DNA from: an uncultured bacterium
Lineage (GTDB): Bacteria; Krumholzibacteriota; Krumholzibacteriia; LZORAL124-64-63
Length of the DNA stretch: 64,000 bases
Direction: 5' to 3'
NCBI GenBank assembly: GCA_963727525.1
Contig: CAVSGO010000003.1
Location: 256,001 to 320,000 of the forward strand
Shown here: one piece after another, positions 19,646 to 25,769 of the stretch
Numbering within the stretch: position 1 is the first letter of the stretch
Layout: each line of letters begins with the position of its first letter
Program-made: the position numbers and the translations under genes
The notes under the pieces: model-generated
Told to the model about the DNA's origin: nothing
The model's database searches: none
Seen by the model: only the letters and a program-made list of their open reading frames with translations

Positions 19646-20725
19646 TTACCGATCCAGGACCGCGAGCAACTCCTCGATGTTCCAATGTTCGGCGATGGAA
19701 CGCACCGAATCCCCGTCGCTGTTGGCCCGGTCCGGGTCGGCGCCCGCGGCCAGCAGCCGCTTGACCATCTCGCGCTGGCCTTCGAACAGGGCCCACATGG
19801 CTGGTGTGTTGCCAGCCGCGCCGACCGGATCGATCTCTACCCCGGCAGCCAGTAGCCGCGCGACCAGGTCGCTGTTGCCACCGATGGCCGCCAGATGCAG
19901 CGGTGTCAGGCCCAGGCCGGACCGCAGCGACTGATGAGCGGGATCGGCGCCGGCGGCCAGCAGCTGCCGGCCGACACCGGCATGGGCACAACGCCCGGCG
20001 ATCATCAACGGTGTGAACCCGATGGGGTCGGTGGCGTCGACCAGGGCACCGGCTGACATCAGCAACGCCACGACGCCTTCATCGCCGGCGGCGGCGGCCC
20101 GGTGCAAGGGCGAGCGGTCCACGCTGTCCCGGGCATCGACATGGCCACCGGCGGCCAGGGCGGCGCGCAAGGCAGCGGTGTCGGCGTCGGCGATCGCCGT
20201 GAACACCGCCTGATCGGCGGGTGCGACCTGTCGGGCCAGGCCCAGGCGTTCGGCCAGCGGCTGCAGCAGGGCCTCGTGCCCCCGTCGCCGGGCGACGTCC
20301 AGGGCATTGCCATGGCCGACCAGCGACGGATCCGCGCCCACCTCGAGCAGCATGGTGGTTGTGGCCAGGTAGCCGTAGTAGGCGGCCCAGTTCAGTGCGG
20401 TGTCGCCGGCCTTGTCCCGTGCGTCGGGGTCGGCACCGTGCGCCAGGAGCGTGCGGCCGACAGCCGTATTGTCGTGTTCGGCCGCCAACATCAGAGCCGT
20501 CGCGTTGTAGTAGTCGGCGTCGCGGGTTTCGGGCGACGCCCCGGCGGTGAGCCAGGTTTCGACGGCGGCCGGGTCGCCCGCGCGTACAGCGGCCAGGAGC
20601 GAGTCGGCCACGGCCACTGCAGAGGGTGCAGACTCCGTATCACTGGCCGCGAAGGCCGCGCCGGCACTTCCCAGCGCGATGACCAGGAGGCCGCCCAGAA
20701 GAGCCCGCCGCCGATCCCGCCTCAA
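19646..20725 (-). CDS. Exported ankyrin-repeat protein
   Basis: Repeated TALMLAA / TALNWAA / SPLHRAA / TPLMIA / TPLHLAA ... GADP units; signal peptide; TTG start uncertain. Confidence 0.88.
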   Translation of the reverse strand: MRRDRRRALLGGLLVIALGSAGAAFAASDTESAPSAVAVADSLLAAVRAGDPAAVETWLTAGASPETRDADYYNATALMLAAEHDNTAVGRTLLAHGADPDARDKAGDTALNWAAYYGYLATTTMLLEVGADPSLVGHGNALDVARRRGHEALLQPLAERLGLARQVAPADQAVFTAIADADTAALRAALAAGGHVDARDSVDRSPLHRAAAAGDEGVVALLMSAGALVDATDPIGFTPLMIAGRCAHAGVGRQLLAAGADPAHQSLRSGLGLTPLHLAAIGGNSDLVARLLAAGVEIDPVGAAGNTPAMWALFEGQREMVKRLLAAGADPDRANSDGDSVRSIAEHWNIEELLAVLDR

Positions 20726-21060
20726 GGGCTGACCCCAGACAAACAGAAACTGCCGAGTCCGATAAATTTCATGCCGAGATCTCCTGCTATTGTCCGCAGC
20801 GAATCACCGTGCCGGTGAAGATACGGGACCCATCCAGGAGATTCAACCGGATCCGCTGGCGCACCAGAGTCAGCCGTTCGTCGTTCCGCGGCGAGGGTAT
20901 CCAGCTCGTTCTACGGCCGGTCACGATCGGTTCCGTCAATGGAACGGTGCCGACCGAGCAGGGCGTCGTACGCGAATTCTCAGGTCTCGCCCTGGTGGGC
21001 GACCAACCCACGAGATCGTGATGATTGCGCGGGCGTGCGCGCCGTGACGTCGCACCGGAC

Positions 21061-21089
21061 TTGACTCCGGTCGCCAAAGGTCCGACAAT
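21061..21089 (+). promoter_or_regulatory. Sigma70-like promoter of the Sec/TusA/DsrE/MetE-like operon
   Basis: TTGACT-N17-GACAAT. Confidence 0.65.
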
Positions 21090-21119
21090 TCCAGAGGTCT
21101 CCGTCGACAGGAATGTTCC

Positions 21120-21206
21120 ATGCTCCGATTCCTCGTTGTCACCGGCTTCACCTGAGGCCGCCCGCTGGACGCCGCCCGGGTCTGGCAGGCGCGTCGTGTC
21201 GGCTAG
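21120..21206 (+). CDS. Putative 28-aa selenopeptide MLRFLVVTGFT-U-GRPLDAARVWQARRVG
   Basis: AGGA RBS 7 nt before ATG 21120; in-frame TGA 21153-21155; hairpin 21168-21195 with CCG-GGUC-UGG apex; TAG 21204-21206. Confidence 0.55.
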
Positions 21207-21313
21207 CTGACGAGGAAACCGTCTTCTCCCGCACACACCCCCCGCCCTTCCGATCCCGGCGTCCACCCCTGGGCGTGACCTCGAGGCACATCCTCCAACC
21301 GGGATCAGCGAGC

Positions 21314-21559
21314 ATGGCGGGCTATCCGCGACACTGGAATTTCGACGACGTCTACGACTCCGTCGACCGCGGCTGCGGCGATTTCATCATCGACCTGCGT
21401 CAGGTCGTGCGCGAGCTCGAGCCGGGTGCGGTACTGATGATCGCGAGCCGCGACGCCGGTGCGCCCGTGGAAATCCCGGCCTGGTGCCGCCTCACCGGTC
21501 ATACCCTCCTCGATGCTGAGCCTCCGTTCTACCTCGTGCGCAAGCGCGAGGGCACCTGA
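21314..21559 (+). CDS. TusA/SirA-like sulfur carrier protein
   Basis: DRGCG...LEPGAVLMIASRDAGAPVEIPAWCRLTGHTLL...YLVRK; CG instead of canonical CP. Confidence 0.85.
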   Translation: MAGYPRHWNFDDVYDSVDRGCGDFIIDLRQVVRELEPGAVLMIASRDAGAPVEIPAWCRLTGHTLLDAEPPFYLVRKREGT

Positions 21560-21583
21560 CCCTGTTTCCGAAAGGATAGCGAC

Positions 21584-21949
21584 ATGGCAAGCACATTCTG
21601 CGTCACGATCTCCGAATGCAAGACCAACGGCGACAAGGCGACCCTGGGTTTCGTGGTGGCGAATGCCGCCCTGGGCAGCGACAAGGACACGATGGTGTTC
21701 CTGAGTGCCGATGGCGTGTGGGCCGCAGTGAAGGGCGAGGTCGACAAGATCAATGAGGGCGACCCGTTCGCGCCCTTGAAGGACCTCGTGGAGAAGTTCG
21801 TGAAGAACGGTGGCAAGATCCTCGTCTGCTCGCCGTGCATGAAGAAGCGCGGGCTCACGGAGGCGAACCTGGTGGAAGGCGCGTCACCAGCCGGCGGCGC
21901 GGCGCTCGTGGAGTGGCTGTCCAATGGGTCGCCCAGCGTGGGGTACTAG
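21584..21949 (+). CDS. DsrE/DsrF-like protein
   Basis: VANAAL...VFLSADGVW...GGKILVCSPCMKKRGL (CxxC). Confidence 0.88.
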   Translation: MASTFCVTISECKTNGDKATLGFVVANAALGSDKDTMVFLSADGVWAAVKGEVDKINEGDPFAPLKDLVEKFVKNGGKILVCSPCMKKRGLTEANLVEGASPAGGAALVEWLSNGSPSVGY

Positions 21950-21950
21950 C

Positions 21951-22698
21951 ATGAGCGATCTCGAGAGCCTGCGGCCCGATCACGTGTTCGACGGCGGCGA
22001 TCTCGACTGCGGCAGCGGTCTGGTGCTGCTCATCCGCGAGCACATGCAGAACGGTGCCCGAGGGCGGCGTGCTGGAGATGCGCAGCGTCGAGGTCACGGT
22101 GATCGACGACCTGCCACCTTGGTGCCGCATGGTAGGCCACGAGTACCTCGGCCACCTGCCGGGCCAGACAGCGCAGCAGAAGCGTTACTTCGTGCGCAAG
22201 GGTGGGGGCGAGGCTGCGCGGGCCGAGCAGCAGGCGCTCGAGGACGACAAGGCGCGCGCCCGCGAGTTCGAATGGCGACTGCGGGCGCGCGCGTCCGGCC
22301 ACCTGGCCACCACGGTCTACTGCCGCAACTTCCAGTGGACCCTGGGGCAGTCGGCAAGTTTCGAGGAGACGGACCAGCACCCGTCGGCGGTGGAGGCGCT
22401 GCTGGGTGCCGTCGCCGCCGATCTGGTCACGGGGTTCGGTACGGCGTGCGCCCAGGCCGGTCTCGATGTGGACGACGTGGAGCTCACCATCCGCGGGCGT
22501 TTGCACGATCCCATGGCCTTGCTGGGCCTTTCCGGCGGCGACCCGTCGCTCGCGTCCATCGACGCGAAGCTGTTCGCGTCCACGTTCGATGATGAGGACC
22601 GCGTGCGCGCGGTGTGGGACACGGTGGTGGCGCGTTCGCCCCTGGTGGCCACGCTGCGCAAGGCCACCGCGATGGAAACCAGGATCGCCATCGTCTGA
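21951..22698 (+). CDS. TusA-like plus OsmC-like fusion protein; one extra base near 22050
   Basis: FDGGDLDCGSGLVLLIREHMQ continues in another frame as VPEGGVLEMRS...DDLPPWCRMVGHEY; C-terminal PSAVEALLGAVAADL...RSPLVATL OsmC-like fold. Confidence 0.78.
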
Positions 22699-22709
22699 GG
22701 AGGACGACC

Positions 22710-23861
22710 ATGTTCAACGTGACCCAGGTGGGGAGCTGGCCCCGCTCCCGCGACCTGTTGAAAGCTCTGCGCGCCAAGCAGAAGGGTGGGCTGAGCCGCG
22801 CGGAGTTCGAACGCGTGGCCGACGCGGAGGTGCGTCGCTGCGTGCAGCATCAGGTGGACGCCGGGGTGGATGTGATCGTGGACGGCGAGCACCGTCGCGA
22901 CAACTTCTACAGCTTCGTCACCGACAAGCTCGACGGTACCCGCCTCATGTCCCTCGCCGAGATGCTCGATACGGTGGACGACAAGTCTGCCTTCGAGGAG
23001 ATGCTCTCCACCCTCGACGTACCGGCCTCGGCCATCCGCAACCCCACCTGCACCGGCAAGCTGGCCAGGCGCGAACCGCTGGCGGTGGAGGAGCTGCGCT
23101 TCGTGCAGCAGCTCACGGACAGGCCCGTGAAGGTGACGCTCCCGGGTCCGTACCTGCTCACGCGATCGATGTGGGTGGGCGCGTTCAGCAAGGCCGGCTA
23201 CGGCGACAAGACCGAGCTGGGCGACGACGTCGTGCGCATCCTGCGCGAGGAACTCACCGAGCTTCGCGATGCCGGCGCGGCCTTCGTGCAGTTCGACGAG
23301 CCAGTGCTCACCGAGATCGTGATGAGTGAGGACTGCGACCGCCGCACCTTCATGTGAGCGACGCTTGCGACCCGCCGTGATGCGGGTGCCGAGCTGGAAT
23401 ACGCGGCGGACCTGATCAACCGCATCGTCGAGGGCGTCGACGGGGTGCGCACCGGTGTGCACGTGTGCCGGGGCAACTGGAGCCGCCAGGAGGAGGTTCT
23501 GCTCACCGGAGACTACCACGCCCTGTTGCCGGCGTTCACCGCGATGCAGGTGCGTCAGTTCGTGCTGGAGTACGCCACGCCGCGCGCGGGCGAGCTGCGC
23601 GTGGTGGGCGAGAGCCTGTGCGATCGCGAGATCGGCCTGGGCTGCGTGAATCCCCGCACCGACGAGGCCGAGGACCCGGCCACCATCGTGGCGCGGGCCG
23701 AGGAGGCCCTGCAGTACTGGCGCCCGGAGCAGATCTGGCTGAATCCCGATTGCGGCTTCGGCTGCTTCGCCAACCGCTGCGTGAACGAGGAGAGCCACGC
23801 CGTGGCCAAGCTGCGCAGTATGGTGACGGCGTCGCGGATCTTGCGGGAAAGGCACGGTTGA
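22710..23861 (+). CDS. Cobalamin-independent methionine synthase (MetE C-terminal barrel)-like protein with in-frame UGA, putative Sec216
   Basis: GGAGG RBS; VGSWPR, DGEHRR, KVTLPGP, VQFDEP, TFM-TGA(23355)-ATL, HVCRGN, VLEY, NPDCGF all in one frame, 383 aa. Confidence 0.85.
23363..23394 (+). promoter_or_regulatory. Bacterial SECIS-like hairpin
   Basis: GCTTG-CG-ACCCGC-CGTGAT-GCGGGT-GC-CGAGC; loop starts after 18 nt following the UGA and contains GU. Confidence 0.7.
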
Positions 23862-23924
23862 AGGGATTGGGGCGCACCAGGCGGCCCGGCGCAATCGGCG
23901 ATGCACGCGATCGCCGCTGCGAGC

Positions 23925-25769
23925 TCAGATCTGCTTCCGGAACCAGAGCACGATCCCGTACCCGAAGACACCAAACACGACAGACACGATGATGAGCATC
24001 GCCAGATCAAACCCCGACCCCGAGAGTATCTCGATACCCCAGCGTCCGCCCAACCTGATCGCGTGATCGTCGACAAGGCCCTTGAGATTTCCGACGAGAT
24101 CGAAGCCGAACGTACCGATTGCGATCAACCCGAGAAGATATGCGAGTCGGTTGTCATTGCGCTTGGCAATTCGCGCTTCACGATCCTGCGTCTGCTTCTC
24201 GACGTTGTCGACCATCGCTTCGATCGCGGCGACGTTGCGCGCGATGCCGCGCCGCGCCTCGAGAGCCTCGAACGTGTCCTTTTCGGTGTCGTATCGAAAT
24301 ACGTTGATGTAGCGCTTCTGCTGATAGTCGCTGACCTGCCGCCTGCGGAAGGCGTAGAAGAGTTCGGTCGCTGCGCGGAGATCGTGCTTCTCGTCGGCGC
24401 GAATCACCTCCCGGAGCAGGGACGTGGCGCTCCGCTCGTAGGCGCGCACGAAGAACTCATTGTGCATCGCGAGAGCGTGGATGAGAAACGCGTAGGGGCA
24501 GGTCCCGATCCAGTCATTGCCGGCCTCGAGGCTGCGGGAGCGAGACACGAACGTCATCAGTGCGCGAGGATTCGCGAAACGAATGAAGAAGCTCTCCTCT
24601 TCCTGTTCGGCCGTCGCCGGGTAGATCGGATCGAGGCTGTCGAGGACCTCGGAAGCATCCTGATTGATGAAGTCGATGATATTCTGGGTGAAGCCTGCAA
24701 GGAACAGATAGATCAGGTCTTCCTTGGCGAACTTCTCGATCTCGGCAAGGGGAAGTTTGACACGGGCGAGCCCGGAAGACTGGGCCGCGTCGCGACAATC
24801 CGTGACGAACTCCGGATACCGATCGAACGCATCCATCGTGACGCGGTCCATCCGCCTCACGCGAATCGGTTCACCGTGTTCACCCGGCCGGGACGGCGGT
24901 ACCAGCGCCTCGAAAAACTCGCGATCCTGAAAGAAGAACATGTAACGAGCGCGCGGCATCATCAGGCCAGGTATCTCGAGGAACGCGTCTTTCTCGATGT
25001 ACAATTCGAACGGGCTCGTGGCGGGAGGTCGTGACGCCGATGAATTGCGGATCCGGCGTTCCAGGTCCGAGAAGTCACGGTCGAATCGGGATGCGACCCA
25101 CGCCCACAGCGAGATGGTCTGGCCGCCGACAGGTTCACGCACGCAGACCGAATCCAGAGGCAGGATATGCGTCGGACGCGCCAGGACATGGGAGGCGCGC
25201 CCGTGCCCGCCGTAGCGAAATTCCTTGGGGGCGACGGCTTTCTGGAGCAAGCCTAGGCGGTAGAAATCAGCCGCCGAGTGCTCGTACGGTACCGAAAACG
25301 ACAAGTGGTAGGAAAGCGCGTAGGCGAGATGGACGTACCAGAATCGCCGCGCCCGCACCATGCGCACGTCTGGCTCTTCGAGATCGACCTCGAACGTCGT
25401 GCCCTCCGTCGTCCAGGTGATGGACCGCGGCATGTGCAACTCGAGTTCCTCGCCTTCGGGACGCCCCGAAACGTCGAGCAGAAAATCCAGGACCCGACCG
25501 TTACGCTCGCGGTTGGCGATATCGTTGAATAGCGGGTCCATCGCTTCCTGCAGGTCGCGAGTTCCGAGATACTCGCGGGGCGCGGGTGCTCCAGGGGCCT
25601 TGCCGCTCGACGATGCTTTTGGCATCCCCGATCGCGCCGGATCGCGATTCTCCGCGCTGAGGAATTCCTGGAACGTCGCCGGGAGTTCGTCGTGTCCGAT
25701 GTATAGCGAAATCGTGAAAGATAGTGTCCTGTCCGTACAGCTTTCCCATATCAGGCGAGCCTCGCTCAT
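23925..25769 (-). CDS. Hypothetical membrane protein with two C-terminal TM helices (CorA-like topology)
   Basis: GGAGG RBS before ATG 25769; soluble region, coiled segment, then NRLAYLLGLIAIG...LIIVSVVFGVFGYGIVLWF. Confidence 0.7.
   Translation of the reverse strand: MSEARLIWESCTDRTLSFTISLYIGHDELPATFQEFLSAENRDPARSGMPKASSSGKAPGAPAPREYLGTRDLQEAMDPLFNDIANRERNGRVLDFLLDVSGRPEGEELELHMPRSITWTTEGTTFEVDLEEPDVRMVRARRFWYVHLAYALSYHLSFSVPYEHSAADFYRLGLLQKAVAPKEFRYGGHGRASHVLARPTHILPLDSVCVREPVGGQTISLWAWVASRFDRDFSDLERRIRNSSASRPPATSPFELYIEKDAFLEIPGLMMPRARYMFFFQDREFFEALVPPSRPGEHGEPIRVRRMDRVTMDAFDRYPEFVTDCRDAAQSSGLARVKLPLAEIEKFAKEDLIYLFLAGFTQNIIDFINQDASEVLDSLDPIYPATAEQEEESFFIRFANPRALMTFVSRSRSLEAGNDWIGTCPYAFLIHALAMHNEFFVRAYERSATSLLREVIRADEKHDLRAATELFYAFRRRQVSDYQQKRYINVFRYDTEKDTFEALEARRGIARNVAAIEAMVDNVEKQTQDREARIAKRNDNRLAYLLGLIAIGTFGFDLVGNLKGLVDDHAIRLGGRWGIEILSGSGFDLAMLIIVSVVFGVFGYGIVLWFRKQI

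Follow-up and report, generated by a model that had tools for sequence, protein, structure and literature searches.

A predicted selenocysteine-containing MetE-like enzyme encoded with TusA-, DsrE- and OsmC-like proteins in an uncultured Krumholzibacteriota bacterium

In the methionine synthase MetE of Thermotoga maritima, zinc is bound by H618, C620, E642 and C704, and homocysteine by S411, E462 and D577, residues that hold its amino and carboxyl groups (PMC539065, excerpt). The single-barrel relatives MesA to MesD belong to the same Pfam family and have the same fold, and are partnered by corrinoid proteins (MesA–C) or by MesX, a DUF1852 protein (MesD). TusA and DsrE proteins form sulfur relays that lead to tRNA thiolation or, as DsrE3 and TusA, operate in sulfur oxidisers, and families in which selenocysteine (Sec) and Cys alternate are known for DsrE-like (UxxC), OsmC-like (UxxT) and rhodanese-like proteins (PMC13188914). 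Here we analyse a locus in which members of these families are encoded side by side, at positions 21061–23861 of a 64,000-nucleotide stretch of DNA (the window; positions 256,001 to 320,000 of contig CAVSGO010000003.1, assembly GCA_963727525.1) from an uncultured bacterium of the phylum Krumholzibacteriota. It comprises a short leader open reading frame (ORF) and genes for a TusA-like protein, a DsrE-like protein, a TusA–OsmC-like fusion and a MetE-like enzyme with a predicted Sec at residue 216 (Table 1).

The enzyme has the fold and Pfam family of the MetE catalytic barrel and of MesA–MesD, and its His/Cys/Glu/Cys zinc site and homocysteine-binding Ser, Glu and Asp are identical to those of MetE. 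Unlike MetE, it has no folate-binding N-terminal barrel, it carries an additional invariant cysteine (Cys114), and its Sec or Cys sits in a 12-residue insertion directly after a D-E-P motif, an insertion that is absent from MetE and from two solved single-barrel relatives. Its partners also differ from those of MesA–MesD, being TusA-, DsrE- and OsmC-like proteins in place of corrinoid proteins or MesX. With the known TusA/DsrE relays these partners share their Pfam families and invariant cysteines that could carry persulfide. Whereas the usual TusA motif is C-P-x-P, the TusA cysteines here stand in G-C-G and D-C-G contexts and are accompanied by a second invariant Cys; the DsrE-like protein carries CxxC, an OsmC-like domain is attached to one TusA, and the chain of carriers seems to end at a Zn/Sec enzyme in place of tRNA, molybdopterin or a complex like heterodisulfide reductase. 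The locus resembles the Sec/Cys families of PMC13188914 in that the same protein families are present and Sec replaces a reactive Cys, but its selenoprotein is the MetE-like enzyme, whereas its DsrE-like and OsmC-like members either are Cys forms or lack the Cys.

The in-frame UGA of the MetE-like gene

We compared the MetE-like gene with two sets of sequences, namely the best 80 of at least 575 relatives, taken from species-representative genomes (the related loci), and a sample of 201 genomes of the window's own phylum (the phylum sample). The codon aligned to UGA-216 is TGA in 73 of the 80 related loci, TGC in five and TGT in two, and residue 216 is Cys in 18 of 19 full-length database homologues (roughly 60–72% identity), the remaining one having a six-residue gap at this place. 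A close relative of the enzyme occurs in 22 of the 201 genomes of the phylum sample, and 20 of the 21 matches that cover residue 216 hold exactly one TGA. The PF01717 match of the window's protein spans residues 4–375, straight across UGA-216, and both the reading frame and residue conservation hold on either side of it. An ORF list made with translation table 11 consequently cuts the gene into 22614..23357 and 23445..23861 and leaves the leader ORF unlisted, as the first-pass annotation, a model's reading of the DNA without database searches, had pointed out.

A hairpin starts 12 nucleotides past the UGA. Folded as single sequences, the stretches that follow the two UGA codons of the locus, this one and that of the leader ORF, are not significant (z of −1.51 and +0.24), so the support for the hairpin was taken from comparison with relatives. 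Across 74 sequences, 95.9% of the cells are paired and two pairs show compensatory double changes, and sliding the pairing partners drops the proportion to 29–50%. Synonymous third positions vary freely just before the hairpin and are almost frozen inside its arms. All seven Cys forms lack the hairpin, with 1–3 of 6 positions pairing. The published model of the bacterial selenocysteine insertion sequence (SECIS) has a spacing of 16–37 nucleotides (PMC13188914, excerpt); with a spacing of 18 nucleotides from the UGA, G then U at loop positions 2–3 and a folding energy of −9.5 kcal/mol, the hairpin agrees with that model as the excerpt gives it.

The genes selA, selB and selD and the tRNA-Sec (selC) all score above their cut-offs in the window's genome, the tRNA-Sec at 70.4 bits. 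Because TGA recurs in relatives, the SECIS is conserved and the Sec machinery is present, an assembly error or pseudogene at this position is very unlikely, and we rejected that reading; on the comparative evidence, UGA-216 is a selenocysteine codon. Both checks that the first-pass annotation had proposed for this codon, a search of homologues for Cys or UGA at residue 216 and a search of the genome for the Sec machinery, therefore bore it out.

As a separate observation, SelD of the same organism looks to be a selenoprotein itself: its gene (C8:225636-226547, minus strand) contains a TGA in frame, with S-A-G-U-A-A-K as the surrounding motif and a hairpin downstream.

Active site, partner proteins and gene neighbourhoods

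The MetE-like protein matches PF01717 (Meth_synt_2) with 115.1 bits against a cut-off of 21, and its AlphaFold (AF2) model, which has a predicted local distance difference test (pLDDT) score of 82.4, superposes in Foldseek on the catalytic barrel of T. maritima MetE (1t7l) with a template modelling (TM) score of 0.76. Profile alignment to that enzyme, with its residues as listed in the PMC539065 excerpt, carries the zinc ligands H618/C620/E642/C704 to H251/C253/E287/C348 and the homocysteine-binding residues S411/E462/D577 to S9/E60/D196, and all seven are invariant in a 20-sequence alignment; the ligands are those that the first-pass annotation had recognised as His-x-Cys, Glu and Cys. With the zinc site and the homocysteine residues kept, the ligand that the zinc most likely accepts is homocysteine or a closely similar amino acid with a thiol or selenol group. 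Position 216 (Sec or Cys) and the cysteines C114, C253 and C348 are invariant in 80 of 80 related loci. C114 lies in the AlphaFold model on a predicted extra-barrel beta-hairpin, an element that caps the active site in the homologous MetE (PMC539065, excerpt).

No specific NCBIfam model was found for any of the four cluster proteins, and the NCBIfam methionine-synthase models all score far below their cut-offs (best 181 versus 406). The model for classical folate-dependent MetE (TIGR01371) reaches 101.6 against a cut-off of 929.95. The folate-binding N-terminal barrel is missing, as the protein has 383 residues compared to about 750 in the two-barrel enzyme, and its match to PF08267 is limited to residues 140–212.

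The partner proteins are assigned with differing margins. The TusA-like protein scores 32.2 bits against PF01206 (cut-off 28.6) and conserves both C21 and C58 in 64 of 64 aligned loci, and the DsrE-like protein, at 59 bits against PF02635 (cut-off 22.7), conserves C82 and C85 in the same proportion (64/64). In the fusion, the TusA domain has two Cys that are invariant in 63 of 63 sequences, and the C-terminal part matches OsmC (PF02566) with 29.8 bits, barely above the cut-off of 27.5. We rejected a role of the fusion as an OsmC/Ohr thiol peroxidase, the two catalytic Cys of which are not conserved; the domain is probably OsmC-like in fold and not a typical peroxidase.

Two further observations concern TusA. 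A variant of about 205 residues, whose N-terminal domain of about 140 residues is unassigned, is encoded 3' of the enzyme gene in Acidobacteriota and part of the loci labelled Planctomycetota (L015:6191-6805, L023:6300-6905 and seven further loci), and the TusA-like protein of the window (21314–21559) weakly matches the N terminus of the Rv1681-family radical S-adenosylmethionine (SAM) model of NCBIfam, NF049973.

The full cluster of TusA, DsrE, TusA–OsmC and MetE-like genes recurs in 59 of the 73 Sec-type loci, with TusA upstream in 54 and downstream in five, which is the synteny that the first-pass annotation had made its first check. The other Sec-type loci comprise two that lack TusA only (both at a contig end), one with TusA–OsmC, the enzyme and a downstream TusA, four on short broken contigs (the OsmC part adjoining in three of these) and seven without an adjoining cluster. 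Among the Cys-type loci, none of the seven has the four-gene cluster. The related loci span at least 12 phylum labels, which a quick gene tree largely follows, and the nesting of Cys forms among Sec forms in that tree implies at least two to three Sec/Cys switches.

In the window, the genes that flank the unit at 21061–23861 sit on the opposite strand, so the five reading frames form a self-contained unit. The sigma-70-like site ahead of them, a consensus match only, is the single one in 20700–24100, where shuffled sequences lead one to expect 0.3; the first-pass annotation had likewise seen one promoter-like site in front of co-oriented genes. One operon for a previously uncatalogued selenoenzyme system is the best explanation of the five frames. 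A scan of 20500–24500 against Rfam, with E values up to 10, returned no family apart from one chance-level small RNA match. The divergent gene upstream (19646–20725, minus strand) has a translation that suggests, on visual inspection, ankyrin repeats and a signal peptide.

Table 1 Features of the locus, in coordinates of the window
Feature	Position	Strand	Basis
Sigma-70-like promoter candidate	21061..21089	+	TTGACT, 17 nucleotides, GACAAT; 9/12 consensus match
Leader ORF, 28 codons, in-frame UGA as codon 12 (21153-21155)	21120..21206	+	Translation
Hairpin 3' of the leader UGA	21159..21191	+	Pairing across relatives, energy
TusA-like protein, 81 residues, C21 and C58	21314..21559	+	Pfam PF01206
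DsrE-like protein, 121 residues, C82-x-x-C85	21584..21949	+	Pfam PF02635
TusA–OsmC-like fusion, frame-broken near 22053	21951..22698	+	OsmC Pfam match in C-terminal part
Single-barrel MetE-like Zn enzyme, 383 residues, predicted Sec at residue 216	22710..23861	+	Pfam PF01717
Predicted Sec codon UGA-216, motif T-F-M-U-A	23355..23357	+	Aligned codons, homologues
SECIS hairpin, 6-bp stem, 6-nucleotide loop, G-U at loop positions 2-3	23370..23387	+	Pairing across 74 sequences

Beyond the cluster itself, the neighbourhoods differ between loci. The Cys-type relatives and two Sec-type loci (L036 and L059) have upstream an OsmC-like gene, a gene for an acyl-CoA-dehydrogenase-like flavoprotein of the Rv1679 family and an SBP-like gene of the Rv1680 family, and L059 joins this module and the TusA/DsrE module in one gene string. 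The matches reach 378–406 for the Rv1679 family (equivalog cut-off 600) and 224–250 for the Rv1680 family (cut-off 400), and the Rv1680-like protein bears a weak likeness to a family of putative selenate-binding proteins (86 bits versus a cut-off of 250). With the two families directly upstream, these loci are like the Rv1679/Rv1680/Rv1681 context, unlike the window's operon, which has neither gene; the links hint at a wider gene set shared with mycobacteria, and a literature search for Rv1679, Rv1680 or Rv1681 found no paper. In two Bacteroidota loci (L031:411-3467 and L027:1798-3545), the cluster is immediately preceded by yedF and selD in the same orientation, and L031 additionally has a cysteine desulfurase or Sec-lyase-like gene upstream. 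A gammaproteobacterial locus (L079) has genes for the homocysteine S-methyltransferase family, a PNP_UDP_1 nucleosidase-like protein and an ArsR–rhodanese protein nearby, and a UbiE/ArsM-like methyltransferase adjoins the cluster in six loci (L023, L025, L026, L056, L060 and L080). In Methanococcus maripaludis, TusA/TusD transcripts rise 4.5–4.6 log2-fold on selenium depletion, together with methyl-selenide methyltransferases of the UroD superfamily (PMC11097638, excerpt), and an association with methyl-selenium use is described for related methyltransferase clusters (PMC10418091, excerpt). Together, neighbours and transcript data place the system in the general area of sulfur/selenium and homocysteine metabolism.

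The methyltransferase of L026 (2796–3500, plus strand, just 5' of TusA) is ArsM/UbiE-like and has an in-frame UGA of its own (W-S-D-U-V-A-G-A), after which a hairpin of 8 bp without mismatch encloses a GGUC loop; the protein resembles a known selenoprotein of the arsenite-methyltransferase type.

UGA-bearing leader ORFs

In Escherichia coli, the 5' leader of selAB carries a SECIS-like element, and TnaC is a leader peptide that senses its stop codon. The leader of the window is like these in combining a hairpin of SECIS geometry with a short ORF that ends or pauses at UGA ahead of selenium-linked genes. It differs from them in that the hairpin follows an in-frame UGA inside the short ORF and in that there are three unrelated sequence versions, known here from sequence. 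The three versions occur in 19 genomes in total.

The version of the window has a G-F-T-U core that is kept, together with its hairpin, in seven genomes of one family whose leaders have otherwise diverged (the window, L002, L003, L005, L029, G132 and G187), and the element is single-copy in the window's own genome. Its hairpin has 85.5% of cells paired, compared to 27–48% when the partners are slid. In the window it folds with −19.2 kcal/mol and places its apical loop at nucleotides 22–25 counted from the U of the UGA, a distance that matches the SECIS of the MetE-like gene and falls within the bacterial SECIS model as excerpted from PMC13188914. A second version, R-R-R-L-U, is found in eight other genomes of the same family, where the Shine–Dalgarno sequence and the start are conserved and the hairpin has 7 bp and a G-U-C loop. 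The hairpins of both versions agree with the SECIS model in spacing, loop and energy, and their distance from UGA to apical loop is close to that of the SECIS in the enzyme gene. The third version, P-F-T-U, heads the operon in four Eisenbacteria/Gemmatimonadota loci and brings the FTU form to 11 genomes.

A covariance model of the leader (R1) matched the G-F-T-U group only, that is, its five training sequences among the window and the 80 related loci and two new genomes among 18 further stretches. A generic scan for a short UGA-containing ORF with a hairpin returned 8 of 58 loci, but it missed known cases and is too insensitive for absences to be counted. A BLAST match to the leader in another genome (G007) was rejected as spurious.

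The first-pass annotation had called the product of this ORF a selenopeptide, a description that gives way to that of a short leader ORF: with the FTU form in 11 genomes and a different UGA leader in eight others, a regulatory role fits at least as well as a carrier peptide. That the ORF is a leader sensing Sec or SelB is possible as judged by these alignments, at somewhat less than an even chance, and a free selenopeptide is doubtful; what probability remains goes to an ordinary short leader or to chance.

Two side observations belong here. When the whole leader is folded to minimum energy, 7 bp join the start region of the leader ORF (21118–21124) to that of TusA (21310–21316; z −1.9). Three loci have a signal-peptide protein of about 320 residues between the P-F-T-U ORF and TusA (L032:2328-3434, L016:2607-3551 and L070:2450-3523), for which no Pfam or NCBIfam match was found; a longer reading in L032, with TGA as Sec, has G-G-C-G-U immediately after the signal peptide, and the protein may be an outer-membrane channel or another selenoprotein.

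Candidate mechanisms and their implications

We hold with moderate confidence that the locus encodes a Zn/Sec enzyme for a homocysteine-type substrate, with Sec216 as a second chalcogen and the TusA, DsrE and TusA–OsmC proteins as dedicated carriers. The zinc site (H251, C253, E287 and C348) would bind homocysteine or a near-identical thiol or selenol amino acid, and the Sec216 loop, at the mouth of the active site and with Cys114 on the capping hairpin, would form a second reactive chalcogen centre. The TusA-like, CxxC DsrE-like and TusA–OsmC-like proteins would be partners dedicated to this enzyme, their invariant cysteines passing sulfane sulfur (or selenium), or else reducing equivalents, to Sec216. 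A relay of S/Se or of an alkyl group had likewise been proposed in the first-pass annotation and is conjectural. The zinc-bound substrate might then be altered by chalcogen or alkyl transfer, in place of the classical folate-dependent methylation of MetE, and the upstream UGA ORF with its hairpin may act as a leader that couples expression of the operon to the cell's capacity to decode UGA as Sec. A more specific version, in which sulfane sulfur (or selenium) from TusA/DsrE is carried by Sec216 as a selenosulfide, the zinc site makes or breaks the C–S(e) bond of homocysteine without folate or pyridoxal phosphate, and the leader is Sec-gated, we regard as unlikely.

Several findings weigh against this reading. 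The full retention of homocysteine and zinc residues fits ordinary methyl transfer equally well, and the Sec loop (residues 203–221) is modelled at pLDDT below 50, so its placement relative to the zinc comes from its position in the sequence only. The OsmC-like part has no invariant Cys among 30 sequences, its two Cys being counted in 41 of 70 and 54 of 72. The gene of that fusion is also broken in the assembly: of the five co-oriented genes in the first-pass annotation all five frames are found, but this one is not a single open frame, its N-terminal part (frame of 21951) and C-terminal part (frame of 22054) being offset by +1. Compared with the DNA of six close loci there is one extra G near 22053 (22050–22056), and the gene is continuous at the break point in 63 of 63 other loci; the break may stem from faulty assembly or from a genuine mutation that inactivates the gene. 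The same annotation had placed hairpins after both UGA codons, and whereas that of the MetE-like gene covaries, that of the leader shows no compensatory change. The leader is recognised in 10 of 63 operon-bearing loci and in eight of ten further genomes of the same family, besides the window. Its P-F-T-U version (four genomes) departs from the bacterial SECIS model: the stable hairpin is spaced by 9 nucleotides and lacks G at loop positions 1 and 2, and a second possible hairpin, of 4 bp, reaches only −3.0 kcal/mol. UGA is moreover a common ordinary stop codon in GC-rich genomes. Finally, selD adjoins the cluster in just two of the 80 related loci.

The first of these points leads to the alternative that survives best, which we consider unlikely but credible: a plain core methionine (or selenomethionine) synthase with a non-folate methyl donor, in which Sec or Cys216, Cys114 and the partners only protect or re-reduce the zinc-thiolate site. 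Every homocysteine-binding residue is kept along with the zinc ligands, which would allow a reaction of the methionine-synthase type, and the fold is that of the MetE catalytic barrel. Single-barrel methionine synthases with other methyl donors are known in MesA–D (PMC7857596, excerpt). The homocysteine S-methyltransferase and nucleosidase-like genes beside the enzyme gene in L079 would suit such a synthase, and the CxxC of the DsrE-like protein with the two-Cys TusA proteins could form a thiol–disulfide chain. TusA and DsrE families are known as sulfur carriers, however, not as reductases, and a four-gene cluster kept across at least 12 phyla would be a large investment if it served repair only. 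No corrinoid protein or MesX partner appeared among the neighbourhoods scanned; a search of the window's genome for DUF1852 (MesX) gave no match, but its control matched in no genome either. The window's genome has a full MetH, with the MetE-like gene as its only Meth_synt_2 gene, and of the 22 genomes in the phylum sample that carry the enzyme, 21 appear with MetH among the matches listed, the exception (G104) being 86% complete. No SAM or cobalamin (B12) riboswitch was found with Rfam in the window region or in 26 related loci. The first-pass view that this is not ordinary methionine synthesis is thus plausible, given the missing folate barrel, the presence of MetH and a riboswitch search that found none, but it is tempered by an active site that keeps all homocysteine residues of MetE.

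It is quite improbable, in our estimate, that the system serves selenium salvage or trafficking, with the MetE-like enzyme running in reverse on selenomethionine, Se-methylselenocysteine or a similar compound and the partners carrying selenium to SelD. The yedF and selD genes that precede the cluster in L031 and L027, joined in L031 by the Sec-lyase-like gene, would fit this proposal, but the adjoining selD is limited to these two loci of one phylum. That the TusA/DsrE cluster is found with Sec-type enzymes only is also in keeping with salvage, as is the weak likeness of the Rv1680-like protein to the putative selenate-binding family; the close Cys-type relatives, however, sit in different contexts. 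The rise of TusA/TusD transcripts in M. maripaludis on selenium depletion and the tie of related methyltransferase clusters to methyl-selenium use point the same way, as far as the excerpts of PMC11097638 and PMC10418091 go, but a Sec-dependent salvage enzyme would fail exactly when selenium is scarce. Furthermore, we know of no MetE-type site that removes methyl groups from thioethers or selenoethers.

It might be argued from the one-base frame break in the neighbouring TusA–OsmC gene and the non-significant single-sequence folds that the UGAs are ordinary stops or errors, in which case the MetE-like gene would be a disrupted pseudogene in an assembly of poor quality and the leader ORF a product of chance. 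For the enzyme this is close to refuted. Of 80 independent assemblies, 73 have the same TGA, as do 20 of the 21 phylum-sample matches that cover residue 216; frame and residue conservation runs on past the TGA, synonymous sites are frozen only within the hairpin arms and the Sec machinery is complete.

Returning to the Zn/Sec enzyme with dedicated carriers, we place the enzyme in a subfamily of the MetE fold that is marked by Sec and by conserved partners for which we found no description. The main text and tables of the 2022 and 2026 reviews of prokaryotic selenoproteomes mention no methionine synthase, MetE, homocysteine, TusA, PF01717 or PF01206, although their supplements might list the family. 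A full-text literature search returned nothing on a Sec-containing MetE-like enzyme with TusA/DsrE/OsmC partners, and the first-pass statement that no characterised pathway has this composition agrees with that search, which found no description of one.

If confirmed, the enzyme would add a widespread selenoprotein family, present in 73 species-level genomes among the best 80 relatives and in about one-ninth of the genomes of the phylum sample, within one of the best-studied enzyme folds and at a place where gene callers currently return two fragments. That it stays tightly linked to TusA-, DsrE- and OsmC-like proteins across phyla suggests a chemistry of homocysteine, or of a close analogue, outside the known methionine, sulfur-relay and selenium pathways. 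As there are natural Cys forms for expression in standard hosts, this chemistry is directly testable, with cultivable carriers. The UGA leader ORFs are a concrete candidate for a means of matching selenoprotein gene expression to the supply of selenium. If true, a Sec-gated leader, in which UGA is read only with charged tRNA-Sec and SelB, would give bacteria their first described example of a leader that senses selenium through translation.

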